A DNA stretch of 64,000 bases, taken from NCBI GenBank assembly GCA_050248995.1, contig JBFWRI010000003.1:28619-92618 (forward strand), read 5' to 3'. Positions 5,980-53,975 of the stretch are shown here, piece after piece; positions within the stretch are counted from its first letter, which is position 1, and every line of letters starts with the position of its first letter. The notes beneath the pieces were generated by a model that searched no databases, was not told the origin of the DNA, and saw only the letters and a list, made by a program, of their open reading frames with translations. This DNA comes from Bdellovibrionales bacterium (GTDB taxonomy: Bacteria > Pseudomonadota > Alphaproteobacteria > JAIXQD01). A program made the translations under genes and the position numbers.

Positions 5980-7432
5980 CACTTTTTTGCGCATCCGACG
6001 GGTAACAGCGAATGGTCACGCTCAGTTCCTTCAGCAAGCCTTCAACTGCCGCTTCATCGCCGCAGAACGGTGCCCGCACAAAGCCGATACCATCGCTGTA
6101 GTTCTTGTCTCCGCTGCCGCTGAAGTATTTCTTGAAAGCATCCAGCGTCGTGATGTCGGTGCGGGTGCGATCGCTGCGCAGCTTGGCCGCGGCATCGAAC
6201 AGGCGCTGCTGGTAAGCCGTCAGGTTGGCTTCCATGCCATTCGCCAGATCATCAATCGCAACAAACTCTTTCTTGCCCATCTGGTCACGCCAGTTGATGG
6301 CAACCGAGCGCTTTTCCAGGTCTTTCGGGCCGATTTCGCCGATCACAGGCACGCCCTTCTTGATCCAGCTCCAGCGCTTGTCGGCGCTGTTCATATCGCG
6401 CGTATCAACCTTCACGCGCACAGGCTTGCCGTCAAACTTCTGCTTACGAATGGCGGCTGCAACTTCTTCCGCATACTTCAACACAGCGTCGTTGTCGGCA
6501 CCTTCACGCAGGATAGGTACCAGCACAACCTGCTGGGGCGCAACCTTGGGCGGCAGGCGCAGGCCATCATCGTCGCCGTGCGTCATGATGATGCCGCCGA
6601 TCATGCGGGTTGAAACACCCCACGATGTTGTGTGCACAAACTCTTCGCGACCTTCCTTGCTTTGGAACTTGATATTTGCCGCCTTGGCGAAGTTCTGGCC
6701 CAGATAATGCGACGTACCGGCCTGCAGCGCCTTGCCATCCTGCATCATCGCTTCAATGGCAAATGTCTGCTCGGCGCCAGCGAAGCGCTCGTTCGGCGAC
6801 TTTTCACCCTTGATCACGGGCATCGCCAGCACGTTTTCAGCCACATCGGCATAGACATCCAGCATCTGCAGGGTTTCGCGCATCGCGTCTTCCTTGTCAG
6901 CATGCGCCGTATGGCCTTCCTGCCACAGGAATTCCGCTGTGCGCAGGAACATGCGGGTGCGCATTTCCCAGCGTACCACGTTGGCCCACTGGTTGATCAG
7001 CACGGGCAGGTCGCGATACGACTGGATCCAGTTCGCGAACGCTTCACCGATAATCGTTTCTGACGTCGGGCGCACAATCAAAGGCTCTTCCAGTTCGCCG
7101 TCGGGCTTCAGCTTACCGTCAGGACCTTTTACAAGACGGTGGTGCGTGACGATCGCCATTTCCTTGGCGAAGCCTTCAGCGTGTTCGGCTTCTTTCTGGA
7201 TAAGACTTAAGGGAATGAAAAGAGGGAAGTAACAGTTCTCGTGACCGGTCGCCTTGAAACGGTCATCCATTTCACGCACCAGCAGTTCCCAGATGCCATA
7301 GCCCCAGGGCTTGATGACCATACAGCCGCGCACGCCCGAATTCTCGGCCATGTCGGCGGCTTTAATAACCTGCTGGTACCATTCGGCATAATTTTCGGCC
7401 CGTGTAGGTGACACGGCGGATGAATTGCGCAT
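5912..7432 (-). CDS. proS: prolyl-tRNA synthetase (archaeal/eukaryote-like type, C-terminal Tyr)
   Basis: 506 aa. Class II aaRS motifs. N-terminal ...YAEWYQQVIKAADMAE... and C-terminal ...VFSRAY are typical of the editing-domain-less ProRS type. Confidence 0.9.
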   Translation of the reverse strand: MRNSSAVSPTRAENYAEWYQQVIKAADMAENSGVRGCMVIKPWGYGIWELLVREMDDRFKATGHENCYFPLFIPLSLIQKEAEHAEGFAKEMAIVTHHRLVKGPDGKLKPDGELEEPLIVRPTSETIIGEAFANWIQSYRDLPVLINQWANVVRWEMRTRMFLRTAEFLWQEGHTAHADKEDAMRETLQMLDVYADVAENVLAMPVIKGEKSPNERFAGAEQTFAIEAMMQDGKALQAGTSHYLGQNFAKAANIKFQSKEGREEFVHTTSWGVSTRMIGGIIMTHGDDDGLRLPPKVAPQQVVLVPILREGADNDAVLKYAEEVAAAIRKQKFDGKPVRVKVDTRDMNSADKRWSWIKKGVPVIGEIGPKDLEKRSVAINWRDQMGKKEFVAIDDLANGMEANLTAYQQRLFDAAAKLRSDRTRTDITTLDAFKKYFSGSGDKNYSDGIGFVRAPFCGDEAAVEGLLKELSVTIRCYPSDAQKSVSGACVLTGKPATVMAVFSRAY

Positions 7433-7630
7433 AGAAAAACTCCCTGAAAACAGAAATTACATGATGGATGAAATAAAGAAAAGCAGGCTTGTCCGCTTAA
7501 AGCGGTCGTATAACTGGGTTCAGGGTCCGGTTCGAAGCCATGGAATAGCCATATCACACGCAGGCCGCAGGTTCCACATAATTGCATCAGGCCTTGCCAC
7601 ACGCGGTTAAAGTGGGAAGGATATCACCGT

Positions 7631-8659
7631 ATGATCCCCGATACGCCCAAAATTCTATTTTGCCTGACCGACGCTACCACCAAGGACGGGTTGCACTTTG
7701 AAGCCATGAACACGGCGTTGGCGGCGAAGGGCTTTATTTTTGCCGGCGAAGGCACAACCACCACCGGCAAGGTGCTGTTGGTCTACTTCACGTACGAAAT
7801 CGCGCCGAAGGAAAACATATTCAGCCGGCGCTATCATCTGCATGCGGCATTGCTCCCCCTCAAGCGCGCGCAAACGCTGGCGGCCGACGGCAGCGCTTTC
7901 GCGGCACTTGTCAGCAAGGCCAAACAGGGCGACCGCGACCTGAGACTGCGGCCCGGCGACGAATTTATTGCCGACCTCTCCAGCAACCGCGCGCGCTCGT
8001 CTGTCTGGGTTATCCGGCGCAACGGGCAGAAGCTGTTACGCAAGGCCTTCAATGCCGGCAGCATAGCATTTGTCGAACGCGAAGTTCTGGCCCGCAGCAT
8101 CATCAAGGATACACGCATGGCACCTATCGTCTTGCGCGAGGGGAATGTGCTGTACATGCCATTCTACCAGACAGGCTATGTCTGGCGCGAGGGCCTGCTG
8201 AACTTTTACCCGCGCCCGAAAGCCGCGCAGATCTTTGATTTTCTCGGCGCGATCAACCGCCAGGGCTATTCAATGATCGATATCAACCCCTCAGCCTTTC
8301 TGTGGGATGAAACTGGCGCTTTAAGGGTCGTTGACTTTGAGTTCTTCACGCAAACCCGCGTTGCCGACGATCTGAGAAAAAGCGTCGATTTCATCGGCGA
8401 TGTCGGCCACCTGCCAGCGCCGGCCAAAAATGGTTACAAACGCTACTGGTATGACCCGCTGGGCGGGCCATGGCCCCGTATTATGGAATATAACAAGGGC
8501 ACACGGCTTGTTGTTAAAGCCCTGCACCTGCTGTTTTACCGTTTGCCAAGGCGCGCGGCCAAGACTCTGGATCGCGCCCGCAAATCGGCGCTTACTTATC
8601 TCGCTGCTGCACGCGACCTGAAAGCGGGCGGGCTAAAAGACGGGTACTTTAATATATGA
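7631..8659 (+). CDS. hypothetical protein with atypical protein-kinase-like (Kdo/RIO-kinase-like) fold
   Basis: 342 aa. Segment SMIDINPSAFLWDETGALRVVDFEF resembles the catalytic loop plus the DFx metal-binding motif of Kdo/RIO-type kinases, with the catalytic His replaced by Met. ATGA overlap with the next gene. Confidence 0.55.
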   Translation: MIPDTPKILFCLTDATTKDGLHFEAMNTALAAKGFIFAGEGTTTTGKVLLVYFTYEIAPKENIFSRRYHLHAALLPLKRAQTLAADGSAFAALVSKAKQGDRDLRLRPGDEFIADLSSNRARSSVWVIRRNGQKLLRKAFNAGSIAFVEREVLARSIIKDTRMAPIVLREGNVLYMPFYQTGYVWREGLLNFYPRPKAAQIFDFLGAINRQGYSMIDINPSAFLWDETGALRVVDFEFFTQTRVADDLRKSVDFIGDVGHLPAPAKNGYKRYWYDPLGGPWPRIMEYNKGTRLVVKALHLLFYRLPRRAAKTLDRARKSALTYLAAARDLKAGGLKDGYFNI

Positions 8660-10107
8660 CACCTGAAACTTTTCTTCGCGATCGCCTTGTACTGCTGGCA
8701 GGCACACCCGCCGCCACAGCCACCGATGTGCGCAACCATGCGCCGCGCGACGTGCTGGAGATGAATGTCAAAAAATCATCGCAGGTCGGCGCCACCAACT
8801 GCGACGCTGCTGTTTTATGCGGAAAAGCCGGCGCTGCCCTGCGTTCGCGCCGGTTTATCGACACCTTTATATATATAGCTCTGCCGTGGGGTTCCGGCTG
8901 GCTGGCCGCCCTGCCCGGCCTGTTGCGTTACGCCCTGCGCGGCGCCCTTAAATATCGCGGTACAATCACGCTGGCCGGTTTTACCCTGCCGGTACCGGTG
9001 TTCGAGAACAAGCGCACGGGTTCGCGCAAGCGTGCCCGTGTTTATGCGCCCAACTGGCCCGCGCTGAAAATCATGCAGATGCTGAACGACACCGACTGCA
9101 TTGCCCTGCGCTGGATTGAAAGCATCGAAGACGGTTCACACACGGGCGATATCGACATTCTGGCCGGCAGCGGCGACTTGCAAACCATCCAGCAGCGTTT
9201 TCGCACGCACGCCGGCACACAGGCAATCGACCTTTATAGTTCGGATGCCAGCGGCGGCTGCGTGTTCAAGGATGTCGCCTACTTCCCGCCCTTCATGGCG
9301 CGGCAGATGCTGGCCACTGCCGTCACGCGGCCCAGCGGCATCAAGGTTGCGAACGACGAATGGCGCTTTGTGTCGTTCTGCTATCATCTGTTGTTCCATA
9401 AATCCGAACAGCTGGCGATCGGTGCCGAGGAATTGACCGAGAAAAGTTTTTCACGCCCTGATTACGTGCGCGAACTGCAAAGGCTGGCAGCCGCAGCCGG
9501 CCAGCCTGCCCCACGCAGCATCACCGACATCGAAAACCTGCTGAAAGCCCGCAACGTATTCCCTGAAATCGACACCATCGGCTTCCTGAGCACCGGCAAC
9601 AGGTTCCTGCAGCATCGCTATTATAATAAAAGCGGCGATTACATGCCGGGTCTGACGGTTTTTCTGGCCCGCGACTTCGGGCTTGAAGGCGATATCACCA
9701 CCGATATCCGCCGCCAGATTGAAAGTGCCGGGTTCAGCATCCTGCATGAACGCCCGGTTGACCCGAACACGCAGCACGCTGTCGTGCACGCCATCCGTGG
9801 CGGCAACTGGTCGGATAGCGTCGCGCCCGGCGGTATCGCACTGCCGCTGCACGCCTATGTTGCATATGACGCGCAGCCGCTGGCAATCAAAGGCGGCGAC
9901 GCCAAGCGTTACCCGCGTCTTGATAACGCGCGTACGCTTTTAAAGAAATCGGTGCGCGAGGGTTACGCCGCACAGGCCGGTGTGCGCAAGGTCAACATCC
10001 TGCATGCCAGCGATAACACTGCCGAAGCCGTCGGCTATGTTGCGGCGCTGGGCGTCGGTGAAATCCCGGCGGTAAAGGAAATCCTTACCCGTTTGCGCAA
10101 GACCTAG
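8656..10107 (+). CDS. hypothetical protein (483 aa), translationally coupled to upstream kinase-like gene
   Basis: Start overlaps the upstream stop (ATGA). No confident domain. GSHTGDIDIL is reminiscent of nucleotidyltransferase motifs but too short to assign. Confidence 0.5.
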   Translation: MTPETFLRDRLVLLAGTPAATATDVRNHAPRDVLEMNVKKSSQVGATNCDAAVLCGKAGAALRSRRFIDTFIYIALPWGSGWLAALPGLLRYALRGALKYRGTITLAGFTLPVPVFENKRTGSRKRARVYAPNWPALKIMQMLNDTDCIALRWIESIEDGSHTGDIDILAGSGDLQTIQQRFRTHAGTQAIDLYSSDASGGCVFKDVAYFPPFMARQMLATAVTRPSGIKVANDEWRFVSFCYHLLFHKSEQLAIGAEELTEKSFSRPDYVRELQRLAAAAGQPAPRSITDIENLLKARNVFPEIDTIGFLSTGNRFLQHRYYNKSGDYMPGLTVFLARDFGLEGDITTDIRRQIESAGFSILHERPVDPNTQHAVVHAIRGGNWSDSVAPGGIALPLHAYVAYDAQPLAIKGGDAKRYPRLDNARTLLKKSVREGYAAQAGVRKVNILHASDNTAEAVGYVAALGVGEIPAVKEILTRLRKT

Positions 10108-10171
10108 ACCTACGCCACCGCTGCCGCTATCCTGTTGGCGGGAGAGTGAGGACGTCGTTAGAGTATAACGA

Positions 10172-11464
10172 ATGTCTCGTGTTGCGTGGCTTTTTCTTGA
10201 TTTGAATTCCTTCTTCGCATCATGCGAACAGCAGGACGATCCCACCTTGCGCGGCAAGCCCGTTGCCGTCGTCCCCTCGCTGACCGACACCACCAGCGTC
10301 ATCGCCGCCAGTTATGCCGCCAAGGCCTTCGGCATCCGCACCGGCACGCGTGTGCGCGAAGCTAAACAGATGTGCCCCGGCCTTATCCTGCGCACCGGGA
10401 ATCACAAACGCTATGTGCAGCACCACAACGCCGTGAAGCGGGCCATTGAAGACGTGCTGCCGATCGAAATGGTGTGCTCGGTTGATGAATTCGCCTGCCG
10501 CCTGATGGGTGACGAGTGTGAGGTGCGCGAAGCGATTGCACTGGCCGAATGCGTCAAGCAATCCATCCGCCAGAAGGCCGGCGAAGCGCTCACCTGCTCA
10601 ATCGGCCTTGCCCCCAATCGCTTTCTTGGCAAGGTCGCTGCCGACATGCAGAAGCCTGACGGCCTGACCGTTATCAGCCTCGATGATATTCCCGGCAAGT
10701 TGCTACGCCTTAAACTGCAGGATTTCCCCGGTATCGGCCCGCGCATGGCGCAACGCCTTATCAACCAGGGCGTCACCACGGTTGAACAGCTCTATGCGGC
10801 CGATATCCCAACCATGCGTGCGCTGTGGGGCGGCATCGAAGGCGAGAAGTTTTACCAGAAACTGCGAGGTGAAGACCCGTTCTACCGCGCAACCGAAACC
10901 GGCAGCTTCAGCCACCAGCACGTTTTAGAGCCGAAGTTCCGCAGCATGGACGGTGTATCCGCTTATGCCCAGCACCTGCTGCTGAAACTGGCCGAACGCC
11001 TGCGCGACCAGCAATATCTGAGCCGTCGCTTAAGTCTTGTCATACGCTACGCCGGCACCTTCCAGCGTGCGCACGCTGAAACGTCGTTCCATGAAACCGC
11101 TGACAGCCTGACATTACTGCGTGCGCTGAAAGACCTGCTGGCACAAATGCCGCGCGGCAAACCTTTCAAGGTGGCCGTCACGGTCAGCGATCTTATTCCT
11201 GCGGCGCGCCGCCAGCTGGACCTGTTCACCGACGAACAGGAAAGCGAACTTTCAACCGCGCTGGACGACATCAACCAGAAGTACGGCCGCGGCACGCTGT
11301 ACTTCGGTGCCACGCAGGCGCTGCAAAAGCACCTGCATGCGCGTATCGCCTTCCAGCGGGTGCCGGATGAACAGGAGTTCGACGCGCGCGACACCACAGA
11401 ACGGGAATTCCAGAAGCACCTGAACCGTATCAGTGCCATTGAAGACCGCCGACGTGGCGGCTAA
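10172..11464 (+). CDS. Y-family DNA polymerase, UmuC-like (translesion synthesis)
   Basis: N-terminus FLDLNSFFASCEQ...GKPVAV matches UmuC ALCDVNAFYASCE...GKPVVV, and SVDEF matches SIDEAF. Catalytic D, D/N and E are present. 430 aa. No umuD-like gene nearby. Confidence 0.8.
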   Translation: MSRVAWLFLDLNSFFASCEQQDDPTLRGKPVAVVPSLTDTTSVIAASYAAKAFGIRTGTRVREAKQMCPGLILRTGNHKRYVQHHNAVKRAIEDVLPIEMVCSVDEFACRLMGDECEVREAIALAECVKQSIRQKAGEALTCSIGLAPNRFLGKVAADMQKPDGLTVISLDDIPGKLLRLKLQDFPGIGPRMAQRLINQGVTTVEQLYAADIPTMRALWGGIEGEKFYQKLRGEDPFYRATETGSFSHQHVLEPKFRSMDGVSAYAQHLLLKLAERLRDQQYLSRRLSLVIRYAGTFQRAHAETSFHETADSLTLLRALKDLLAQMPRGKPFKVAVTVSDLIPAARRQLDLFTDEQESELSTALDDINQKYGRGTLYFGATQALQKHLHARIAFQRVPDEQEFDARDTTEREFQKHLNRISAIEDRRRGG

Positions 11465-11466
11465 GC

Positions 11467-12783
11467 CTATTGCTCGGTCAGTGCATTATCGGTTGCTGTT
11501 CGGATTGGCTTCATCATGTAGGCCAGCACCGTTTTCTCGCCAATCACAATATCACTATCCACTGTCATGCCGGGTATCACTTTGTGCTCCCGCGGATTAT
11601 GACCCGCATAGCCACGTGAGAGTTCAACGCGCGCACGATAATAGTCTTCCAGCGTTGCCTCATCGCGAAAGACACTGGGCGAAATACTTGTAATCGTGCC
11701 AGGGATGCTGCCGAAGCGCACATAGTCGAACGAATCAACTTTCACCTGCACGGTCTGCCCCGTGGTTACCCGGCCAATCTGCCCCGGCGGAATACGGATT
11801 TCCACCACCAGCCTGTCGTCCATAGGTACAATTTCCATTAGCGTCTGACCGGCTGGCACCACGGCGCCGATCGTATTCAGCTTCAGCCCCTTCACATATC
11901 CGGCAACTGGGGCGCGCACATCCAGCCGCGCAACGCGGTCCCGACGCTTCTTGAGCGCTTCGCGCGCTTGGGCCAAATCGGTTTCCGCCCGCTGCAACTC
12001 GCCATACAATGTATCCCGCTGCTGCACGGTCAACGTTGCCAGACGCTGGTGGTACTCCTGCAGTTCGGCGTCGGCCTCGCTGACCTGATGCTTGAGACTA
12101 CCAGCCATACCCTTGCTCGCATTATACTCTTCCTGGCGTTTGATATACATCGTGCGCGCTGCGTAACCCTGTTTGAAAAGCTTTTCATATATGTCACGGT
12201 TTTCAGCCGCCAGCTTCAGGTTGGATTGCGCGACTTCCGATTCCTGCCGCAGCCGGGCCAGCAGGGTTTGTTTCTGGGCAATCTGGTTTTCCAGTACAGT
12301 GCGCTCGGTCTGCAGGGCCTGCTGTGCCGTATTAAACATACGTACCTGTTCATCTGTCTTGAATGCGGGCGCACGGTCTTCAACCAGCGCGCGCAATTTC
12401 TCTGCCTGGAATTCCAGCGCTGCTACCAGCATCTCCTGCTGCCGCATGTCTTCGGTAGTGCCCGCCCCATCCAGCACCACTAGCAATTGGCCTTTCTCGA
12501 CATAGGCGCCCTCTGTCACCGGGATATCCTGGACGATCCCGCCTTCAAGGTGTTGCACCAGCCGTACATAGCCACTGGGAATGATCTCGCCTTTGGTGCG
12601 CACCAGCTCCTTCACCGGCGCCACCGCTGCCCAGCCGACGAACCCGAATGTTGCCAGGCACAGCGTAATAATGGCGGTTCTTACAAGTCGCGACGGGGGT
12701 TCTGCGCCCTGATCCTGCGCTGTTATAAAGGCCTCGATGCTGGCATCGCCAAAAATATCAAGAGGTGTGACATGACGCATGTT
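11467..12783 (-). CDS. type I secretion periplasmic adaptor (HlyD family membrane fusion protein)
   Basis: About 438 aa from MRHVTPLD. One N-terminal TM helix, a long coiled-coil region and a C-terminal beta-barrel-like region typical of HlyD. Last gene of the T1SS operon. Confidence 0.85.
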   Translation of the reverse strand, partial: NMRHVTPLDIFGDASIEAFITAQDQGAEPPSRLVRTAIITLCLATFGFVGWAAVAPVKELVRTKGEIIPSGYVRLVQHLEGGIVQDIPVTEGAYVEKGQLLVVLDGAGTTEDMRQQEMLVAALEFQAEKLRALVEDRAPAFKTDEQVRMFNTAQQALQTERTVLENQIAQKQTLLARLRQESEVAQSNLKLAAENRDIYEKLFKQGYAARTMYIKRQEEYNASKGMAGSLKHQVSEADAELQEYHQRLATLTVQQRDTLYGELQRAETDLAQAREALKKRRDRVARLDVRAPVAGYVKGLKLNTIGAVVPAGQTLMEIVPMDDRLVVEIRIPPGQIGRVTTGQTVQVKVDSFDYVRFGSIPGTITSISPSVFRDEATLEDYYRARVELSRGYAGHNPREHKVIPGMTVDSDIVIGEKTVLAYMMKPIRTATDNALTEQ

Positions 12784-14509
12784 CTTCTCCTGTCTTGGCG
12801 ACAAGCGCCGGCTTACCAATACTGGGCACAACGCCCTGCTTCATCCAGATTACTTTGTCGGCCAGTTGCAGCCAGTTGTTATGGTGGGTAACGAAGATGA
12901 CCGTGCGTTTGCCGCGACATTCATGCAGGAAGTGTCGGAAGTGCGCGCCAGCGTTACTGTTCAATACATGACCCGGCAACTCGTCACATAACACGATCGG
13001 ACGCGCGGCCAGGTAAAGGCGTGCTAGATTTAAGCGGGCGGCCAATGTGTCTGACAATGCGGTGCCCTCTGCTCCCAGCTGCGCATGGATGCCCTGTGGC
13101 AACGCTTCGACAGCGTCCCATGCATCAGCGCGCTGCAGGGCGTCGCGGATATCGGCTTCACTAGCTGCGGCGTTCACCATGCGCAGGTTTTCTGCCAGCG
13201 TTCCGGGCAGGAACTCCGGCTCCTGCGACAGATAGGCAATCTGGCGCCGCAATACGCGGGGATCCAGCTGTCGATGATCTATGCCGTCAAAGCGTACTGT
13301 GCCCATGCCCGGCGTATTCAAGCCCAACAGCAGCCGCACAAGGCTCGACTTGCCGCTGCCATTGCTGCCATAGATGGCCACGATGTCGCCTTTGTTGATG
13401 CGGGCGTTCAGCCCCCAGAATATCGGGTCGGCCCCGGGTGCATAACGCAGCGACACATTCTGAAGCTCGATACCGCCGTGCAGGCGCGCGAAGCCGGGCG
13501 CCGTCGTATGTGCATGACGCTCGGGTGTCAGTGCCATCACCTGCAACACCTGCTGCAACGCCTGACGCACCTGCCCGAAGTGCGGGACAAGGGCACAAAT
13601 CGCCTGCAGCGGATACAGCAGGCGCCAGGTAATGATCATCGTTGCTACCATGGCACCGCCCGTCATTGTGCCACTCCATACACAGTGCAGTGACCAGTTG
13701 ATGATGACAACGCCCGCCACCACCGACAGCAGTGCCGATATATATTGCACGGCTGTTGCCAGCAGATTGTGCCGGCACTGGAGCTGCGTTGCCCGTCGGC
13801 TGATGCTCCGATAACGCTGGACTACCGTATCGGCCATACCAGCCGCATAAATCATCTTCATGTTGTCGATACTTTCCATCAACAGCAATTGCCGCTCAGC
13901 CGCAGCCTGAGTCATCTCGCGTCCCATGCGCTGCCATGTCCCTGCCAGCATCACCAGCAGCAAGCCATAAATGGCCAGCACGCCAAGGCCGACCAGCGCC
14001 ACTGGCCCGGCCAGCAGCCCCAGTACCAATACAAGTATCCCCATATAAGGCACTTCCAAAAGCGTCAGGAACATAGGCCCCGTCAAAAAGTCACGCACGG
14101 ATTCAAACGCGCCGGCGCGGGCCATCTGCGCCGCGACCGGGGCGCGCGCACCTAAGGAAGCAGGCACGAAAAGCAGCCGCCTGAACAATGACTGCCCCAC
14201 ATCACGGTCAAGCCGGACACCCAGCCATGCCACCAGCCGCGAACGTACGGCACGGAGCATGAATTCGGTTAGGAATGCGCACGCCATGCCTGCCACCAGC
14301 ATCGGCAGTGTATCCAGGGCCTGCACGCCAATCACGCGGTCATACACGATCATGCAAAAGACGGGTACGGCCAGCATGAATATATGAACGCCGAGGCTTA
14401 GCAACATCACCGGCATCAGTAGTGGTCGGCAGCGCTCTAGCGTCATGCGCCACCATGTGTCGGCTGCCTGCGGCGGCGACTCAGTTGGTACGACGACTGC
14501 CGCTGTCAC
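12758..14509 (-). CDS. type I secretion ABC transporter half-transporter B (TMD-NBD, no C39 peptidase domain); degenerate signature motif
   Basis: 583 aa. N-terminal 6-TM exporter domain with YDRV motif. Walker A GSNGSGKSS, Walker B IVLCDELPG and H-loop VTHH are intact. The signature position reads ALSDTLAARLNLARL instead of LSGGQRQRIAIAR. Confidence 0.85.
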   Translation of the reverse strand: MTAAVVVPTESPPQAADTWWRMTLERCRPLLMPVMLLSLGVHIFMLAVPVFCMIVYDRVIGVQALDTLPMLVAGMACAFLTEFMLRAVRSRLVAWLGVRLDRDVGQSLFRRLLFVPASLGARAPVAAQMARAGAFESVRDFLTGPMFLTLLEVPYMGILVLVLGLLAGPVALVGLGVLAIYGLLLVMLAGTWQRMGREMTQAAAERQLLLMESIDNMKMIYAAGMADTVVQRYRSISRRATQLQCRHNLLATAVQYISALLSVVAGVVIINWSLHCVWSGTMTGGAMVATMIITWRLLYPLQAICALVPHFGQVRQALQQVLQVMALTPERHAHTTAPGFARLHGGIELQNVSLRYAPGADPIFWGLNARINKGDIVAIYGSNGSGKSSLVRLLLGLNTPGMGTVRFDGIDHRQLDPRVLRRQIAYLSQEPEFLPGTLAENLRMVNAAASEADIRDALQRADAWDAVEALPQGIHAQLGAEGTALSDTLAARLNLARLYLAARPIVLCDELPGHVLNSNAGAHFRHFLHECRGKRTVIFVTHHNNWLQLADKVIWMKQGVVPSIGKPALVAKTGEEHASCHTS

Positions 14510-16230
14510 CGGGCCACCCCATAGCGCAGAGCCGGCTGCGCAACCACACCTGCGTGACGCACAGTCAGCACGCCATGCCGCAGCTCGTAAATACGGTCGG
14601 CCAGCCCGAGGATGTTTTGATCCTCAGTCACCAACACCAGTGTCACGTTGCGCCTAAGACGCATCAGCATACTGAAAACCGAAGCGTAACTGGATCTGTC
14701 CAGCCCCTGGCCGGCATTATCAAACAACCCAGCGCGCGGGCGCTGCAGCAAAACACGCGCGATAGCAATGCGTTGTTTGAGGCCGGGCGATACCGCGTCA
14801 CTAATAGTGTTGTCCAACTGCGTTTCGTACCCGGCCGGCAGCAGCGCCACAGCCGATTCAATACCCAGCGCCGTTGCCAGTAGGCGCACATCAGCGGGTG
14901 GACGATCCTGGAAACCCGTGATGTTGTCCATGATTGTGCCACGCAGGATCAGTCCGCGTGTCGGCAGATAACCGATTGCCTGCGCACGCGCCGTATCAGT
15001 TAGCTGCGATGCATCAACGCCCCCCAGAAGCACGCGTCCGCTGTCGGGCGCATAAAGCCCTGCCATCAGTTCCAGCAGGGCTGTCTTGCCGCACCCGGCC
15101 GGGCCTGTGATAGCAATAGCCTCGCCCGGCATTACCGTCAGCGAAAGCTTGTCAATAACAGGGCTGCAGGCGCCAAACGACAGTTGCGCCTGTTGCAGTT
15201 TCAGCGGCACCGGACCCAGTATCGCGCCGGGCTCAACCCGCCGCGTTTCAAGTTTCATAATCGTGGCAAGCCGCTGGGCCGCCACGTTGATGTCCTGCCA
15301 GCGCAACCACAGGCCAGCTCCGCGCTGAACGTGCTGCAGGATCTGACCCGACAGCATTATCCCAGCCGCCAGCATACCGCCTGTGATCATGCCCTTTACC
15401 GCCAGTACCGCACCAACCCCCATTAACGCCGTTACCATGATCTGGGCGCCCAGATAGCCAAACGTGCCCGACGCGCTTTGCAAACAGGCCAACCGGTAAA
15501 GAACGGGCGCCCCTGCACGCTGCAAGTCATCGTAGCGTTGTGCTACGTCGCTTTCCCAGCACATAGCCTTGATGGTAGGCAGCGCCTGCAAAGCCTGGCT
15601 GGCGAATGTGTGCCGCCTGTCATCATGACGCTCGCGCGCGGCGGTCAGGTCACGCAGAGCACGGCCGTGGCGAACAAACATAAGTATGGCGATGGCAATA
15701 CCGCCGACCGTTACAAAGACCAGAGGGCCGGTCAGGTAGAATGTCAGCACCAGAAACAGGACAGCGAAAGGTATATCGACCAGCAGTGTCGCCGTCATCT
15801 GGCCTCCATAGTATTCTTTGAGACGCTGGACGGCGTTGATATCCTGCACGCGCACAGTGGTTGTCTTGCTGGCCTGGCGACGCGGCTCGATTGCAAGCAG
15901 ATGCGCCAGCGCGGCCGACGACATCGTTTCATCGAACCTAGCGGCCGTTCTGGACGTTACCGTCTGGCGCAACAGACGCAACAGACACTCGGCCAGCGCG
16001 GCAACCAGCACACCCGCGGACAAGATTAGCAGCGTATCGGCGGCACGGCTAATCATCACACGGTCATAAATCTGAATTGTCATCAGCGGCAGCGCCAGGG
16101 CCAGCAGGTTGATGGCAACCGATGATCCCATAACCAGCGCAGCGTGTGGCGTGCGAAGCATCAGGCGGTACGATGACGGGATAAGAGACACCAGATAAAC
16201 CTCAAGTTGTATATGTTGATGACCGTACAA
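14506..16230 (-). CDS. type I secretion ABC transporter half-transporter A (TMD-NBD, no C39 domain); degenerate Walker B/H-loop
   Basis: 574 aa. Walker A GPAGCGKTA. Near-consensus signature VSPGLKQRIAIARVLL. Walker B position GLFDNAG (catalytic Glu -> Asn). H-loop position VTED (His -> Glu). 4-nt overlap with the downstream ABC gene. Start uncertain: TTG at 16230 or ATG at 16161. Confidence 0.8.
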   Translation of the reverse strand: MYGHQHIQLEVYLVSLIPSSYRLMLRTPHAALVMGSSVAINLLALALPLMTIQIYDRVMISRAADTLLILSAGVLVAALAECLLRLLRQTVTSRTAARFDETMSSAALAHLLAIEPRRQASKTTTVRVQDINAVQRLKEYYGGQMTATLLVDIPFAVLFLVLTFYLTGPLVFVTVGGIAIAILMFVRHGRALRDLTAARERHDDRRHTFASQALQALPTIKAMCWESDVAQRYDDLQRAGAPVLYRLACLQSASGTFGYLGAQIMVTALMGVGAVLAVKGMITGGMLAAGIMLSGQILQHVQRGAGLWLRWQDINVAAQRLATIMKLETRRVEPGAILGPVPLKLQQAQLSFGACSPVIDKLSLTVMPGEAIAITGPAGCGKTALLELMAGLYAPDSGRVLLGGVDASQLTDTARAQAIGYLPTRGLILRGTIMDNITGFQDRPPADVRLLATALGIESAVALLPAGYETQLDNTISDAVSPGLKQRIAIARVLLQRPRAGLFDNAGQGLDRSSYASVFSMLMRLRRNVTLVLVTEDQNILGLADRIYELRHGVLTVRHAGVVAQPALRYGVAR

Positions 16231-16312
16231 CCCAAAGTTTAATCAAAAATGACTTCCTCCTACGCCTGTAACCGCACCGCCTGTACATATTTACAGCGAT
16301 ATGCGCGTCGCT

Positions 16313-18337
16313 CTATCCATTGCCGAACAACCCACCACCAAACAGACCACCCGTCAGAGGTTCCACGGCAGGCAATGATGTAATGGTCGCGACCGGCAGG
16401 ATTTCGGCGACGGGCAGTATATCCGCTTCCGGCATACTATCCAACAGCAGCGTGTCCACGATATCCAGCGAACTTTCAACTGCGCCAGCCAGTTCCGGCA
16501 GCATGGTTATGCTTTCGTCAACGAATTGTGTCGGCTCGACTTGCTCTAAAACAGCGGTGGCATCGATATCCTCATCGACCGCTCCGCCTGGTTCCAAGAT
16601 CCCACCCAGCATATCCGGATTCATGTCCGGCAGCATCTCGGTCGTACCAACAACAAGGGTACTGTTATTATCACCTTGCGTATCAAGCGTCAGCCATGAC
16701 GAATTCAGCAGGTCAGTATTCGATTCCGAAGCCGTATGAGAAAGAAGGTCAATGTCGATCAAGTCGTTATCTTCAGCCTGGTCCGACCGGCTAAGGATAT
16801 CAATGTCCACCAGATCGTTATCACTAGCAGTGGCATTGCTGGCATTCTCGCCCAGAATGCCTATATCAAGGTCGATGATGTCGTCGTCCTGAACAGCCTG
16901 TGTCGAGTTACTTCCCAGCAGCGCCACTCCGACGTCAGCGATGTCATTGTCATCACCTGCCTGCTGCGCATTGTTCCCCAATATACCCGCATCAAGATCC
17001 ACGGTATCGCTGTCTGTCAGCACGGCGACGTTGTTGTCTTGCAACAGGGCGATATCGCCGTCGACAGGATCATTGTCCGTGGTTGTGCCACGCTCAAAGC
17101 CCGACCCCGTAACACCTGGCGAGGCAAGATCAATCAGACCGGACGCACCAATCAAGTCTGGGGCCACCGAAGCGATATCGTCCACACCTGCTACGTTAAG
17201 GATATTGCCGGTCTGTTCATTAGCAACGTCCTGAGCCAAGCCCGTTATATTCGTCAGCATATCAAGCCCCCCTTCTGCGCCTGCATCGACGCTATCTGTC
17301 AATGTCGCTTCTAAAAGTGCATTGAAAACATTCCCCCACCCATCCTGTGTGGCGGCCATAACATCTGCCGCCACTGCCGTAACGCCATCAGTCATACCGT
17401 TCACCATCAGCAAAGTGTCCTCAACGAGGTTGCCGGCATCCCCGGCCGCAAGAGAAGCCAACATGTCAGGCAGCGGTTCGGTTACCGGTGATAAAACAGT
17501 TTCCACACTCTCTGTGGCAGCCGCCAGCAGGCGTGTTGCTGTTTGTGTTATGTCAACCACAGTTTCCAGCGTGCTATCAACAACTGGCGCCAAGGCCGGC
17601 AGTTCGGGCAGGATGCTGTTCCCGATTATTCCTTCAGCGATACCCCGTACGGGAGCCTCTATGCTTTCCACGATCTCGCTGACGGTTTCCGCCAGCGGCG
17701 TAACCGCGTCTGTTGCTGCATCTGTCACGGCTTCAATAAGCGTGTCGATGGTTTCACCAACATTATCTGTGATATCTGCAACCGGCAAGAATTCTGGTGA
17801 TATCGTATCAGTGAGGGTCTCGCCTACCGGCAGCCATGCTGGTGCCTTCGTATCTGCTTCCATGGCAGCAGAAGCATCGTTGCCGGCAAAACCGGGCAAT
17901 GACGGCGCCTGAGGCAGGCCCGCGCCAGCTACATTTTCCAGCGAGGTTGGAACACCGGCTATGTCGGACATCAGGAAGGGCGGTGCATCTGCCAACGCAG
18001 TGCCGTCATCCGGCCTTCTACCGTTGGCACCGGCACTGTCTGCTGCCAGATCTGCAGGCAGGCGCAGGCGACCTATAACATCCTCGAGCGCGACATCGGG
18101 AAGCCCGCCGGCCCGCAGTGCCGAAGGGCTGGCCATATTCGCGATAGCAAGATTTTCATCAAGGCGCATCACGCCAGCAAGATGCCTCTCTGAAGCAGCG
18201 TCGTAATTGATAACATGACCGATATTCAGGTTGCCCGTAGCGGCAACATTCTCCAGATCCATATTCAGCGACTGGCCGCCAAAGATATTGGCTTCACTTA
18301 GTTTGCTGGAAACTTTACTTGCAAGGTCAGTCAGCAT
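16313..18337 (-). CDS. putative type I secretion substrate: acidic, Cys-free repeat protein with Gly-rich C-terminus
   Basis: About 675 aa from MLTDLASKV (GGAG 8 nt upstream; the ORF-track start 18523 is an extension). Very high D/E/A/T/V content. Tandem repeats of roughly 20 aa (DNDIADVGVALLGSN / DDDIIDLDIGILGEN / DNDLVDIDILS / DNDLIDIDLLS). C-terminus ...PLTGGLFGGGLFGNG. Directly upstream of the ABC-ABC-HlyD genes. Confidence 0.6.
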   Translation of the reverse strand: MLTDLASKVSSKLSEANIFGGQSLNMDLENVAATGNLNIGHVINYDAASERHLAGVMRLDENLAIANMASPSALRAGGLPDVALEDVIGRLRLPADLAADSAGANGRRPDDGTALADAPPFLMSDIAGVPTSLENVAGAGLPQAPSLPGFAGNDASAAMEADTKAPAWLPVGETLTDTISPEFLPVADITDNVGETIDTLIEAVTDAATDAVTPLAETVSEIVESIEAPVRGIAEGIIGNSILPELPALAPVVDSTLETVVDITQTATRLLAAATESVETVLSPVTEPLPDMLASLAAGDAGNLVEDTLLMVNGMTDGVTAVAADVMAATQDGWGNVFNALLEATLTDSVDAGAEGGLDMLTNITGLAQDVANEQTGNILNVAGVDDIASVAPDLIGASGLIDLASPGVTGSGFERGTTTDNDPVDGDIALLQDNNVAVLTDSDTVDLDAGILGNNAQQAGDDNDIADVGVALLGSNSTQAVQDDDIIDLDIGILGENASNATASDNDLVDIDILSRSDQAEDNDLIDIDLLSHTASESNTDLLNSSWLTLDTQGDNNSTLVVGTTEMLPDMNPDMLGGILEPGGAVDEDIDATAVLEQVEPTQFVDESITMLPELAGAVESSLDIVDTLLLDSMPEADILPVAEILPVATITSLPAVEPLTGGLFGGGLFGNG

Positions 18338-18561
18338 CGCGGTCTCCATATGAATATGTGAAAATGAACGAGCGATAGAAAACACCACGACCTTAGCGCG
18401 CCGGTTTTGCGAACGGCTTAATGGGCGACATATGGATTGCAGAGAAATTGAAATGGATTTTAAGCACTGCGGAACAGAGCGTCGGCTGCGACGTCCTTGG
18501 TATCCTGCGTCCGGATGATGCAAACGGGCACCAGTACCAATGGTTACATGTGTACGTACGG

Positions 18562-19059
18562 TTATGTAGGCGTGCGGCGCGCGCGGTGCTTAGGAATGGC
18601 GCCTGAGGCAGGATGTTGTGAGCGCCGCGCATCACGAGCCTTCATCGCGTCTTTATAATAATACGGGTTCTGGCGCTGGGCCGCCACACCCCCGCGGCTG
18701 ACCGACGCTTCGCTGATCATCAACCCGTGATCCTTCCCCAACGTTTCTTCTACAATGTCCAGCACAAGGTCGTAAGCTTCGCGGATATCTTCTGTTGCTG
18801 CCACTTCCATGCGGAAGCCGACAACGCCGCGCCGGCCATCGCGGGCGTACTTCTGTCGGTTCGGATTGCGGCGCGTATAACGCGCTGTGGGATGGACGGC
18901 AGGACCGATGAAGCTGAAGTGACCGCTGTCGCACAACGCCATTTCCAGTGCATAGGCATCTTTCATCGGCATCAGCGGAAAGTGATATTCGTCGCCATGC
19001 GGCCACGGATTGTCCTGCTGCAGGCGCGGCGTCAGGATAACGAATTCAATTTTTTCCAT
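18562..19059 (-). CDS. hypothetical protein (166 aa), likely co-transcribed with nucleoside hydrolase
   Basis: Start MEKIEFVILTP. Overlaps the upstream nucleoside hydrolase stop by 14 nt. Confidence 0.45.
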   Translation of the reverse strand: MEKIEFVILTPRLQQDNPWPHGDEYHFPLMPMKDAYALEMALCDSGHFSFIGPAVHPTARYTRRNPNRQKYARDGRRGVVGFRMEVAATEDIREAYDLVLDIVEETLGKDHGLMISEASVSRGGVAAQRQNPYYYKDAMKARDARRSQHPASGAIPKHRARRTPT

Positions 19060-20026
19060 GGTGCTTTTCCTGCAAAAGCTTCTTGAAACTGCCACATACT
19101 ATATCGAAGACAGCATCGGGGTCACGTTGCTTTTCCATCACAAGAATATTGCTGTCAGCGCGCGGCGTAAAGACGCTGTGCCCCTTGTTGCCGTCGGTTA
19201 GGTCAACGGCGATGTCACCACGCTGGCCTTCGTACAGGTCAGGCTGCGCCAGGTAAACGGCCGTATGCACGTCATGCATAAACGCTGAAGCACCGAATTT
19301 CCGCATGTCGATTTCAGCCGGCACTTTCATCAGGCTGACGACGGTTTCCAATTCTGGCATCCCTGCCAGCTCCCGTCGCAGTATTGACTCGCGCACCGGC
19401 GTGAAATCCAGCTGCTGAGTGCAGTTCATCGGCAGCACAACCAGCGGCAGACCGCTTGTCATCACAGTTGCCGCATCGTTTGGCGCCATGTGAAAGTTGA
19501 ATTCAGCGTATGGCGTCAGATTACCCTGCCGCACCGGCATATCCTTGGCTGGCAGCGGTTTCGTGCAGGCACCCATAATGACAATCTGCTTCACGCGACG
19601 CATGGCTTCCGGGTCTTTCCTGAACGCGACTGCAATATTGGTCAGTGGGCCAGTGGCCGTAATGGTAACACTGCCTGACGGATGTGCCTTCAGCGTTTCC
19701 AGAATAAAGTCTTCGGCCATCTGCGTTTGCGGCTCGTTTTCAGGCGGCGGCAGCACCACACCGCCAACGCCGCTTGATCCATAAGCATCATCACCTTCAG
19801 GTGATGGCTCGTTACTGGGCCCTGCTGCGCCCGGATATCGCTTAATATCGCTAACGCCAAAAAAGCCTTGGATACTTCCGGCGTTATAAAAAACCTGTTT
19901 CTGGGTTGTGTTGCCGAACGTCGCTGTGATGCCAAGGATTTTGAACCTCTCAGGCTGGGCTGCCAGCACAAGGAATACCTGTGCATCATCGCTGCCCCAG
20001 TCGCCATCACATATAATAAGTTCCAT
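19046..20026 (-). CDS. inosine-uridine-preferring nucleoside hydrolase family protein
   Basis: N-terminal MELIICDGDWGSDDAQVFLVLAA matches the IU-NH aspartate cluster motif (DxDxxxDD). About 326 aa. Confidence 0.75.
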   Translation of the reverse strand: MELIICDGDWGSDDAQVFLVLAAQPERFKILGITATFGNTTQKQVFYNAGSIQGFFGVSDIKRYPGAAGPSNEPSPEGDDAYGSSGVGGVVLPPPENEPQTQMAEDFILETLKAHPSGSVTITATGPLTNIAVAFRKDPEAMRRVKQIVIMGACTKPLPAKDMPVRQGNLTPYAEFNFHMAPNDAATVMTSGLPLVVLPMNCTQQLDFTPVRESILRRELAGMPELETVVSLMKVPAEIDMRKFGASAFMHDVHTAVYLAQPDLYEGQRGDIAVDLTDGNKGHSVFTPRADSNILVMEKQRDPDAVFDIVCGSFKKLLQEKHHGKN

Positions 20027-20119
20027 AAGCGGCCACCTTAGGCGCACTGGAAAAAACCACCAGCCCGAAACGGGATATCAGGCGGCCAGATGCGGTAGCA
20101 ATTTGGCGGCTTGTTGTTT

Positions 20120-20302
20120 TCAGGCGCGTACGGCGCCTGCATTGAACGGATCGTCTCTTTTAGTGTAGATGAATTCGGCAGCGCCCAGCAGAATCACAGC
20201 TACCGGTATGTCCTGGCTGTTGTATGCATCGATGCCTGCCTGCCACAATGTTTGGGCGTCGCGGCTACTTATTGCTTTATGTATGTGCTCAAAATCCGGC
20301 AT
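20120..20302 (-). CDS. small hypothetical protein (60 aa)
   Basis: Strong SD AAGGGGA 5 nt upstream of ATG (MPDFEHIHKAIS...). The longer track ORF 20120..20476 would run through the tRNA-Gln gene and is rejected. Confidence 0.35.
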   Translation of the reverse strand: MPDFEHIHKAISSRDAQTLWQAGIDAYNSQDIPVAVILLGAAEFIYTKRDDPFNAGAVRA

Positions 20303-20337
20303 CGCAATCCCCTTACACCAACATGAAGTGTAAAGAA

Positions 20338-20412
20338 TGGTTGGGGTACCAGGATTCGAACCTGGGAATGTCGGTACCAAAAACCGATGCCTTACCGCTT
20401 GGCGATACCCCA
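20338..20412 (-). tRNA. tRNA-Gln (anticodon UUG)
   Basis: The reverse complement reads TGGGGTATCGCCAAGCGGTAAGGCATCGGTTTTTGGTACCGACATTCCCAGGTTCGAATCCTGGTACCCCAACCA, close to E. coli tRNA-Gln. Anticodon loop TTTTGGT. Confidence 0.9.
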
Positions 20413-44418: not shown

Positions 44419-45794
44419 CGCCCGGTCTCCATTTTTTGTTCAAGCGTTTTCACACGTTGGCGCAGCTCGGCATTTTCTGCGGCCAGCTGGCGCAAAGACT
44501 CAATAATCGGCGCCACAAGCCCCCCATAGTTTACACCTTTGATGCCTTTTTCGTTGGTAGAGACTAGCTCGGGGAACACTTTTTCAACATCCTGCGCCAG
44601 AACACCTAGATTAGGCCGATGCGAACTCTTCAAAGTATAGCTGACCCCATGGATCTTCAGCAACTGATCCAGTGGTCTTTTTAGTTCTGCGATGTTGTCT
44701 TTAAGCCGCCGGTCGGAATCATAGATGAAGCTGGCAGCACGTAATTCACCATTAACAGTCAAGTCGCTGGCCAACGTCAGCGTAGGATCAGCAGCACCGC
44801 CGCCGGCGGTCAGCGCGCGCGAAGCCCCACCGTAATCAAAAAGAATTGACGTTACATCGGCAACATTAGGTGTTGTTACAGTTCCTGTCGCCGCGATAGA
44901 GCTTGCAGCCACAATATCCCCGCCACCCATTTCGATTTGGCCGCCGCCCATTTCGACACTACCACCGGTCATGCGCAAATCGCCGCCGGCCATAATGATG
45001 TTATTTGTCGCGTCTGTCATACGGATATTGTGTGACGATGCATCCGCATCAAGGAAGGATGCCGCCGCTGCGCCCCCCATATACAGGTCGGTTGTCATCG
45101 TGGTCATCGTCGGTGCACCGCTGACAAGGACGCGTGATAGAAAATCACCCGAGGAGCCGGTCGTCAGGTCCAGCGAACTGATAAAAGCAAGGCCCGCCGA
45201 ACGATTAACCGGCGGCGTCACCCCGCCAACAGTAAAATCCGTGACGGGCATTGAGACCGCACCATACGCCGTACGAACCACATCCACAGCCTCGTCAAAC
45301 ACCGAGGCACCTTCGGCGCCGACAAGGCTGGCGATCATCGCGCGCGAGATGGGCGTACTTGCCGTGCCACCGCTGGTGAAGATACCGATCGCGAACATCG
45401 GGTAATCCACGCTGCTGACCGTAACATCGGTCAGGCGGCGCAATACGGCCGAATATGTTGCACCGCTGGGGCTTGTCGCCGGCAAAGTACTATTACGGAA
45501 AGTCTGCACATCGGCTGTAATCGAGCGCGTTGCGCCTTCGGCGATTGGGGTTCCCGCTACATCCCCCGTGCTGGCATCCATGTTGGCATTAAGATAGGCG
45601 CGCGCGCCCTTCAGCCATTGCTGGATCTGCTGTGCCGTAGCCTGGTCCTGAATCTGACGACTGCTGGCAGCCGTCAGCTGGAACAGGCCGGCGACCAGAA
45701 TACCCAGAACAGTCAGAACGATGGCCAGTTCGACCAAGGTAAAGCCCCGCTGGCGATGATGGATATTTTCCGACGACATCATGTATCCCCGCAC
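44415..45794 (-). CDS. type IV minor (tip) pilin-like protein fused to beta-helical repeats and a C-terminal S74 intramolecular-chaperone (tail-fibre/endosialidase) autoproteolytic domain
   Basis: Prepilin N-terminus ...HHRQRG|FTLVELAIVLTVLGILVAGLF (Glu at +5). Central periodic repeats (GGDLRMTGGSVEMGGGQIEMGGGDIV). The C-terminal about 100 aa DSDRRLKDNIAELKRPLDQLLKIHGVSYTLK...GVLAQDVEKVFPELV...GVNYGGLVAPIIESLRQLAAENAELRQRVKTLEQK matches the Peptidase_S74 (CIMCD) domain pattern. Confidence 0.7.
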   Translation of the reverse strand: MRGYMMSSENIHHRQRGFTLVELAIVLTVLGILVAGLFQLTAASSRQIQDQATAQQIQQWLKGARAYLNANMDASTGDVAGTPIAEGATRSITADVQTFRNSTLPATSPSGATYSAVLRRLTDVTVSSVDYPMFAIGIFTSGGTASTPISRAMIASLVGAEGASVFDEAVDVVRTAYGAVSMPVTDFTVGGVTPPVNRSAGLAFISSLDLTTGSSGDFLSRVLVSGAPTMTTMTTDLYMGGAAAASFLDADASSHNIRMTDATNNIIMAGGDLRMTGGSVEMGGGQIEMGGGDIVAASSIAATGTVTTPNVADVTSILFDYGGASRALTAGGGAADPTLTLASDLTVNGELRAASFIYDSDRRLKDNIAELKRPLDQLLKIHGVSYTLKSSHRPNLGVLAQDVEKVFPELVSTNEKGIKGVNYGGLVAPIIESLRQLAAENAELRQRVKTLEQKMETGR

Positions 45795-46334: not shown

Positions 46335-46431
46335 GCCGCTATCCTACCAGTAAGGGCTTAATAGAACCAAAAAACTGGAAGCCAAAAAATGGCGGAAAAA
46401 CGGGCATTTGCCGCTTTTCCGCCATGATTTC

Positions 46432-47004: not shown

Positions 47005-47036
47005 TTTCTCCTCCTGGCGGCCACGCCGCACATTGG

Positions 47037-48122: not shown

Positions 48123-48125
48123 GAC

Positions 48126-50168: not shown

Positions 50169-50198
50169 TTCGTTACGCCGTCAGACGTCCGCCCCTGT

Positions 50199-52299: not shown

Positions 52300-52311
52300 A
52301 AAACCCTACGA

Positions 52312-53970: not shown

Positions 53971-53975
53971 TCCGC

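Follow-up and report, generated by a model that had tools for sequence, protein, structure and literature searches.

What does the four-gene operon at positions 11467-18337 of this stretch of Bdellovibrionales DNA export, and what kind of motor does it encode? The initial annotation of the stretch (64,000 nucleotides, here called the window, whose positions serve as coordinates throughout) described a complete type I secretion operon with its own cargo gene. Our analysis favors, at a probability of roughly two in three, a type I secretion system (T1SS) pump in which a heterodimer of two ATP-binding cassette (ABC) half-transporters, ABC_A and ABC_B, would have a single hydrolytic site and, together with an HlyD-family adaptor and an unlinked TolC, would export the protein encoded directly upstream, C-terminus first. 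The annotation had overlooked that the two ABC proteins are not equivalent, one of them appearing from its motifs to be a conserved non-catalytic partner.

Four consecutive open reading frames (ORFs), all on the minus strand, follow each other as cargo gene, ABC_A, ABC_B and HlyD (Table 1), in the place and order first given for them. An independent Logan assembly of run SRR27751816 covers window positions 7286-20394 with one mismatch in 13,109 nt and identical gene lengths; because this second assembly reproduces the region, the operon structure is not an artefact of binning or assembly. A 121-nt spacer separates the cargo gene from ABC_A, whose longest ORF would begin at TTG 16230. The two ABC genes share exactly 4 nt (GTGA), as annotated, and ABC_B does overlap HlyD, by 23 nt rather than the reported 26 or so. 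The cargo is acidic, as described (pI 4.05), and 674 residues long, the earlier figure of 675 having included the stop codon; 674 residues agree with the NCBI annotation (hypothetical protein) and with the independent Logan gene call. Promoter and terminator scans and folding of the cargo/ABC_A spacer yielded no signal exceeding shuffled background, and an Rfam search over the operon and its leader found no riboswitch, the sole match being a tRNA 2 kb upstream.

Several comparisons bear on the type of system. The adaptor matches TIGR01843 at 343.7 bits (cutoff 208.65) over profile positions 1-422 of 422, both ABC proteins match PF00664 and PF00005, and the top NCBIfam models of both, at scores well below the model cutoffs, are the T1SS subfamilies LssB, HlyB and PrtD. 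In a PDB search with ABC_A, HlyB (7SGR, 8DCK) was the best half-transporter (E = 3e-46), and HlyB aligns with ABC_B end to end, from HlyB residue 141. Because the adaptor passes the curated HlyD model, the ABC proteins prefer T1SS models and HlyB is top in the PDB, these comparisons support the type I secretion-type export operon that had been proposed. The accompanying claim that no TolC-family gene lies in the window also held: in a Pfam run on every window ORF of at least 400 aa, PF02321 matched none, and tblastn with the in-cluster OEP-family protein of a related locus (L006) gave nothing in the window below E = 1. T1SS operons commonly have no TolC gene of their own, TolC outside the operon being the usual arrangement (PMC3034196). 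As a matter of annotation the arrangement is ordinary, and it is plausible that the system borrows a putative TolC encoded elsewhere.

Type I secretion is usually described with a homodimeric ABC transporter that has two equivalent ATP sites. Each ATP site of an ABC dimer combines the Walker and H-loop motifs of one subunit with the signature motif of its partner. ABC_A and ABC_B are only 26% identical to each other, and would for this reason be old paralogues. ABC_A has an intact Walker A motif, no Q-loop Gln and the signature VSPGL. In an alignment with HlyB, its Walker B motif (LFDNA) places Asn at the position of E631 (lfDNagqgld vs ifDEatsald), and its H-loop (TEDQ) places Glu at the position of H662 (lvlvtEdqn vs iiiaHrls). 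The name "linchpin" for an H-loop histidine of the His662 type is taken from a paper title in the reference list of PMC7756269. This degenerate pattern is nearly uniform among 41 cluster representatives of ABC_A relatives (P0002-P0042; 35-100% identity), in which Walker A is mostly kept, the Q-loop Gln is missing and the remaining motifs read xSPGLKQR, hhhF[DEN]NAD and VS[EDQ]D; canonical T1SS ABC proteins from the same search retain LSGGQ, DE and H. We take ABC_A to be a conserved, catalytically dead ATPase, as these motifs would predict.

ABC_B retains the catalytic motifs (Table 1) and has the degenerate signature LSDTL. Its closer relatives also keep Walker A, DE and THR or THH, with SSGL in place of SGGQ. 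The site made from the ABC_A Walker motifs and the ABC_B signature would be degenerate on both faces, the site made from the ABC_B Walker motifs and ABC_A SPGLKQR would be the working one, and an ABC_A/ABC_A dimer would have zero catalytic sites. A dead ABC_A together with a catalytic ABC_B of degenerate signature would imply an obligate heterodimer in which a single ATP site works. This pairing is further supported by the 4-nt translational coupling of ABC_A and ABC_B, found here and in every relative locus, and by a fused homologue from Azospirillum oryzae (WP_246457216.1, 1354 aa; NZ_CP054616.1). The Azospirillum protein is a single chain with the order transmembrane domain (TMD), nucleotide-binding domain 1 (NBD1), C39-like domain (CLD), TMD and NBD2, corresponding to ABC_A plus the ABC_B of the relatives; it is 30% identical to ABC_A and 34% to ABC_B, and a T1SS adaptor and a giant repeat protein adjoin it. 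Its NBD1 lacks the H-loop His and, unlike ABC_A, keeps the Walker B Asp-Glu, and its NBD2 has the degenerate signature LSPSL. It further differs from the present system in being one polypeptide and in that its cargo is a divergently transcribed Ig-like giant. Its PGAP name is merely "ATP-binding cassette domain-containing protein". On the NZ_CP054616.1 plasmid (L017), the fused gene at 8863-12927 lies beside an HlyD adaptor and is divergent from the gene of the Ig-like protein (>5000 aa); similar matches came from A. lipoferum, A. sp. B510 and A. ramasamyi. As a separate observation, ABC_B of two distant relatives (L013, 11710-13893; L014, 5197-7416) lacks the H-loop His (FVSDRE, FVSQRD) and keeps the Walker B Asp-Glu, so that neither NBD of those systems has a canonical H-loop.

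Such asymmetry has parallels in TM287/288, TmrAB, BmrCD and TAP1/2, in which one NBD has lost the Walker B Glu and the H-loop His and the partner signature is non-canonical (PMC7756269, PMC8277102). The present pair shows both features, with DN and Glu in ABC_A and LSDTL, CDEL and THH in ABC_B. Those proteins are stand-alone drug or peptide exporters without HlyD or TolC, whereas the pair described here lies in a T1SS context and would handle a large protein cargo. The best-known T1SS precedent with two ABC proteins is the Vibrio MARTX system (RtxB, RtxD, RtxE), which is closest to the locus in its parts list: two required ABC proteins, one adaptor and an unlinked TolC (PMC3034196). In MARTX, however, the B-D-E operon is divergent from the toxin gene, whereas here the cargo, A, B and D genes form a single operon (PMC3034196); the MARTX toxin has several thousand residues and its own repeat types, and the 674-residue cargo has unrelated repeats. 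The four-component MARTX arrangement (rtxBDE divergent from rtxHCA, with a MARTX cargo) is not found at the locus. The Escherichia coli haemolysin system HlyA/HlyB/HlyD/TolC, which the locus would resemble in its way of working, shares with it the ABC fold family, the HlyD-family adaptor, an acidic repeat cargo, a cargo gene that comes first in the operon and a TolC encoded elsewhere, and it shares with the relatives of the locus an N-terminal domain of the HlyB/LssB non-peptidase type. It differs in having an HlyB homodimer instead of two ABC genes, one of which here has a putatively dead NBD (Asn at E631, Glu at H662), and the locus has no C39-like domain, RTX nonapeptides or acyltransferase gene. 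Without the N-terminal C39-like domain, ABC_B also falls outside group 2 (HlyB-type, CLD-containing). A full-text literature search found no description of a T1SS with a degenerate-site ABC pair, which is weak evidence given the library searched, and neither the cargo nor the ABC pair carries a name in family libraries.

Relatives of ABC_A form a closer group of ~33 cluster representatives at 43-54% identity and a more distant group at 35-38%. We pulled ten genomic contexts, mostly from metagenome-assembled genomes (MAGs) of uncultured Alphaproteobacteria, the named records being MAGs labelled Alphaproteobacteria, Rickettsiales or Pseudomonadota; ABC_A, ABC_B and HlyD are common to all. The closer loci (L001, L002/L003, L004, L006, L007, L008, L009) have the order large Pfam-less acidic protein, ABC_A (555-563 aa), ABC_B (711-762 aa) and HlyD (463-466 aa), followed, where the contig continues, by a ~320-aa response regulator, a hybrid histidine kinase of ~900 aa and one more protein of the REC/Hpt kind. 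In the more distant loci (L013, L014), ABC_A, ABC_B (727-739 aa), HlyD and a REC+HATPase_c_2 protein are retained. An OEP/TolC gene is present in two relatives, co-oriented in L006 and convergent in L002, and the genes flanking the operon vary among loci. Because a REC regulator follows HlyD in every relative with downstream DNA, usually with a hybrid kinase after it, a dedicated phosphorelay control of this T1SS clade is suggested. A response regulator of 310-325 aa stands directly 3' of HlyD in L001 (15234-16205), L006 (14714-15682), L013 (15263-16201) and L014 (8795-9721), and its RsbW-like HATPase_c_2 domain was recorded in L004, L008, L013 and L014.

Is the upstream acidic protein the substrate of this pump? 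Because proteins of the same family directly adjoin ABC_A on its upstream side in 8 loci (8/8 closer loci) whose other neighbors differ, the protein is very probably the cargo, in line with the initial annotation. It also has the look of a T1SS substrate: beyond its low pI it has no Cys, 116 Asp plus Glu against 14 Lys plus Arg, an N-terminus that is neither hydrophobic nor signal peptide-like, and C-proximal Asp-rich repeats (PMC3034196). One could instead suppose that the pump exports another protein or a non-protein molecule and that its neighbor is merely co-transcribed. The cargo indeed has no match in Pfam or NCBIfam, so that no T1SS target domain was recognized in it, and essentially the same pump stands in L013 beside a cadherin/Big_9 giant, in L014 beside an RTX protein of the classical GGxGxD kind. 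Because these two loci pair the pump with other cargo types, it is not tied to one cargo family. In both of them, however, the large adjoining gene likewise encodes a typical T1SS substrate, and given the conserved adjacency in the closer loci we regard a non-substrate neighbor as highly improbable.

The cargo belongs to a family with eleven full-length members, seven from the loci plus P0122-P0125. A word-index search with the cargo retrieved solely itself; phmmer against 1.84 billion representatives gave four weak matches through the repeats, whose N-termini show them to be true family members; and a genome scan with the N-terminal block found only 4 loci, 2 of them already known. Family members are extremely acidic, the eight that come from the loci each containing 0-2 Cys and 5-14 basic residues, and their mid-portions are mutually unrelated. 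What they share is found at the ends. The N-terminal consensus is L(E/D)ADLY...Q...EN(I/V)(A/S)(A/S)TGNLN(I/V)GxV(I/V)xYD...G; in an alignment of 7 locus-derived cargos, N30, T34, G35, N36, N38, G40, Y45 and D46 are invariant, and the cargo studied here retains all of these residues. The block is also present in P0122-P0133, and a profile search with it found only proteins or fragments of 55-110 aa. Metagenomic proteins P0126-P0133 (55-110 aa; two on contigs of 12.7 and 33 kb) contain scarcely more than this block. Most of the likelihood lies with gene calls cut short, or perhaps frameshifted, on small contigs, although they could also be genuine small proteins; we did not take them as evidence for stand-alone N-terminal domains. 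At the other end, 10 of the 11 members terminate in GLFG, LLGHH or a close variant, P0122 being different, and the last 60 residues of the cargo are presumed to be its secretion signal.

Between these ends, six 21-residue Asp-rich copies (period 21) are predicted by AlphaFold2 (AF2) to form beta strands stacked as solenoid rungs, with a predicted local distance difference test score (pLDDT) of ~80. The modelled repeats resemble beta-solenoids, Ca-dependent and RTX ones among them. A subset of the family that includes this cargo has 21-residue repeats (23 in P0125) of the form xAVxDNDhhDhxhxhLGNxhS. RTX nonapeptides (GGxGxDxUx) and Pfam HemolysinCabind had no match in the cargo, which on the nonapeptide pattern falls outside the RTX family, and no RTX array was found among the family members examined. 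Foldseek with the whole cargo model returned only insignificant matches to BAR-like helical bundles, a generic helical-bundle likeness that we set aside. The Caulobacter S-layer system RsaA/RsaD/RsaE shares with the locus the order cargo, ABC, adaptor and an outer-membrane protein encoded elsewhere; it and LapA-type adhesin systems (LapBCE with LapDG) also share a cargo whose N-terminal part is conserved, whose body varies and whose acidic repeats lie near the C-terminus. Both differ in having a single ABC protein. The cargo had no match to NCBIfam, which we take to include a LapA-type retention-module model, or to Pfam, and the neighboring ORFs scanned with Pfam included no LapG- or LapD-type gene, neither a transglutaminase-like peptidase nor an EAL protein. 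LapA-type retention or LapG cleavage at an AAT motif was dropped as an explanation, the di-alanine being unconserved. In L018, a true Lap locus pulled for contrast, LapG- and LapD-type genes adjoin a single T1SS ABC gene.

The conservation of the cargo N-terminus raises the question of whether it, and not the C-terminus, directs export, as a leader of the PCAT/NHLP type with the Gly at ~55 as a double-glycine-type processing or docking site. The first 55 residues are the best-conserved part of the cargos, the bodies being wholly different; G55 hardly varies, with G or S as a frequent next residue; and the relatives pair a plain ABC protein with a C39-homologous one, as do NHLP-type bacteriocin exporters (TIGR03796, TIGR03797 and TIGR03794; Legionella LB2SS), which also combine two ABC proteins, one of them C39-type, with an HlyD-family protein and have substrates with a conserved N-terminal region (PMC6959600). 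The NHLP models nevertheless scored only 176.5 to 213 bits where the cutoffs are 709-853, and 75.9 bits where it is 156.2; compared with T1SS models they gave 176 and 159 vs 305 bits for ABC_A and 76 vs 344 for HlyD. There is no peptidase domain in the operon studied here, and in the C39-like domain of the relatives the catalytic position shows no conserved Cys and is mostly occupied by Tyr-Gly. This Tyr-Gly presumably sits where HlyB has Tyr9-Gly, and the domain fits a non-peptidase C39-like domain. Pfam Peptidase_C39 did not match it even at E <= 1, a PDB profile search with it gave a chance match only, and hhalign against an approximate sequence of the HlyB CLD aligned 41 columns in a topologically sensible way at E = 0.058. 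The cargos, at 500-1400 aa, are also unlike short peptides or bacteriocins, and their extreme C-terminus is conserved too. Because the N-terminal block is kept here without any C39-like domain, its role would not be solely to bind that domain. Taken with these points, a leader function of the block seems very unlikely, and export directed by the C-terminus is the reading we retain.

The copy in the window is reduced relative to all relatives seen. Every relative with a complete ABC_B has ~150 extra N-terminal residues, which are C39-like and are absent here: in L001 and L006 the extra region aligns from LssB/HlyB profile positions 5-22, whereas the present ABC_B starts at LssB profile position 135. 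The REC regulator found after HlyD in all relatives with downstream DNA is also absent, as is the hybrid kinase found in most of them, and tblastn for the C39-like domain, the regulators and OEP remnants found nothing anywhere in the window. An alignment with the closer relatives showed that the cytoplasmic N-terminus of HlyD is ~20 residues shorter here and diverged; in HlyB/HlyD, this segment touches the C39-like domain (PMC11026475). The word "complete" in the initial annotation is not supported, because the C39-like domain, the regulators and a clustered OEP gene are missing, absences that the independent assembly confirms.

A number of observations weigh against an intact heterodimeric pump for this cargo. 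The ABC proteins score 304.6 and 382.1 bits, far under the T1SS ABC model cutoff of 693.1. The AF2 model of the cargo is poor overall (mean pLDDT 54), and a single-sequence prediction of the repeat region gives a pLDDT of 39; a hydrophobic-moment scan found the C-terminal tails to be weakly amphipathic. The Walker B region of ABC_A reads NAG where relatives have NAD, the ABC_B signature SDTL deviates further than the SSGL of its relatives, and this cargo has fewer and less regular repeats than those of L006 and L007 (ten copies in L007). The C39-like domain that is missing here is essential in HlyB, where its deletion abolishes secretion of HlyA, and the copy might be impaired (PMC11026475). 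The motif drift, the reduced repeats, the shortened HlyD and the loss of the C39-like domain, regulator and kinase would all suit a decaying, non-functional remnant, in which export was lost along with these parts and a clustered OEP gene and the ORFs are not yet riddled with stop codons. All four ORFs are full length, however, with ribosome-binding sites and translational coupling retained; Walker A is intact in both ABC proteins, as are the Walker B DE and the H-loop His of ABC_B; and every invariant residue of the cargo N-terminal block is kept. The three transport proteins are 47-60% identical to those of the relatives and about evenly diverged, with no single gene accelerated, and T1SS ABC proteins without a C39-like domain, for example of the PrtD type, function normally (PMC8277102). 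On balance we judge a remnant to be unlikely, and an asymmetric pump that may still be active in the organism to be the better account.

How might such a pump work? The inner-membrane motor would be an obligate heterodimer of paralogous half-ABC exporters, with a single competent ATP site formed by Walker A, the Walker B Asp-Glu and the H-loop His of ABC_B and by xSPGLKQR of ABC_A. The site of ABC_A, paired with the degenerate ABC_B signature, would bind nucleotide without hydrolysis. HlyD and a TolC-family channel encoded elsewhere would complete the export path, and the 674-aa protein would leave unfolded, C-terminus first. Outside the cell, the six repeats would fold to a beta-solenoid, probably upon Ca2+ binding, and this folding would drive or lock export, the role of RTX nonapeptides in classical substrates. 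The conserved N-terminal block would exit last; a function in surface retention or docking is a guess. A more specific proposal, which we offer tentatively and consider somewhat doubtful as a whole, is that the locus derives from a T1SS clade not described before and is naturally devoid of the CLD and the regulators. This clade, known from Alphaproteobacteria MAGs and fused in Azospirillum, would be built on an obligate asymmetric ABC heterodimer with one hydrolytic site and would secrete an unnamed protein family, whose hallmarks would be an N-terminal block of 50 residues, Asp-rich beta-solenoid repeats of 21 residues that are not of the RTX type, and a C-terminus of the GLFG/HH type.

What draws attention at this locus is the predicted asymmetric motor, the unnamed cargo family and the naturally CLD-less copy. 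The clade would be a natural system in which one ATP site is permanently non-catalytic and the roles are split over two genes, or fused as in Azospirillum. It would allow tests of how many ATP sites secretion needs, what the C39-like domain contributes and what job the conserved N-terminal cargo element does. If the reduced copy is active, a large protein could be secreted by a type I system with one ATP site and without a C39-like domain, and the N-terminal block would work independently of that domain. A non-RTX Asp-rich repeat and an unnamed cargo family would also be added to the likely T1SS substrates, both of which predictors and family libraries miss. The fused asymmetric T1SS ABC protein of Azospirillum comes from bacteria in culture, which would make it a relative accessible to experiment.

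Table 1. Features of the operon, its products and the surrounding window.
Feature	Position	Strand	Description
Cargo gene	16313..18337	(-)	ATG at 18337, GGAG 7 nt upstream; stop 16313-16315; 674 aa
Cargo N-terminal block	18170..18301	(-)	aa 13-56, LSEANIF...LENVAATGNLNIGHVINYD...G
Cargo central region	17288..17782	(-)	aa 186-350; long helices in AlphaFold2 model (shallow alignment), pLDDT 72-80
Cargo repeats	16718..17101	(-)	Six 21-residue Asp-rich copies, aa 421-535, core DNDhhDhDhxhL(G)
Cargo C-terminal 60 aa	16316..16495	(-)	Presumed uncleaved secretion signal; terminus GGLFGGGLFGNG, family GLFG/LLGHH-type motif
ABC_A	14506..16191	(-)	GTG at 16191, GAGG 8 nt upstream; stop at 14506; 561 aa
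ABC_A domains	14506..16191	(-)	TMD+NBD half-transporter; N-terminal accessory domain absent
ABC_B	12758..14509	(-)	GTG at 14509; stop at 12758; 583 aa
ABC_B domains	12758..14509	(-)	TMD+NBD half-transporter; Walker A GSNGSGKS, Walker B CDEL, H-loop THH
HlyD adaptor	11467..12780	(-)	ATG at 12780, GGAG upstream; stop at 11467; 437 aa
tRNA gene	20341-20412	(-)	Rfam 62.9 bits; ~2 kb upstream of cargo gene
Type IVb/Tcp-like pilus cluster	45807-57622	(-)	Pfam
T2SSF	47037-48122	(-)	Pilus cluster
T2SSE ATPases, two	48126-50168, 55584-56750	(-)	Pilus cluster
PilO-like	51025-52299	(-)	Pilus cluster
Secretin	52312-53970	(-)	Pilus cluster
TcpQ-like	53976-55169	(-)	Pilus cluster

The MAG is labelled Bdellovibrionales by NCBI, and the relatives of the operon are all labelled Alphaproteobacteria, Rickettsiales or Pseudomonadota. 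NCBI taxonomy places Micavibrio under Bdellovibrionales, and we take the genus to belong to Alphaproteobacteria in GTDB. M. aeruginosavorus has a GC content of 54.7% (PMC3189940), and that of the window is close to it at ~0.57. The source organism may be Micavibrio-like; if it is a predator of that kind, the cargo could, as a speculation, bear on prey contact.

Elsewhere the window consists of ordinary chromosomal DNA (polA, proS, secA, recA, prfA, gap) and a type IVb-like pilus cluster. GC content is somewhat lower in the cargo region (0.54 vs 0.58-0.61). The tRNA is separated from the cargo gene by a gene for a nucleoside hydrolase and by an uncharacterized ORF of 165 aa (18562-19095). On the plus strand at 7631-11464, two coupled ORFs (342 and 483 aa; no Pfam or NCBIfam match) precede a Y-family polymerase gene (IMS+DUF4113, 430 aa) that converges on HlyD, the stop codons being 2 nt apart; this group is possibly a mutagenesis cassette. 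The usual place of the Peptidase_S74 intramolecular-chaperone domain is on the tail spikes and fibres of phages. A 459-aa product of the window (44415-45794, minus strand) carries the type IV pilin methylation motif PF07963 at its N-terminus (E 1e-8) and Peptidase_S74 at its C-terminus (PF13884, E 2.6e-14) and is an unusual pilin-like fusion.

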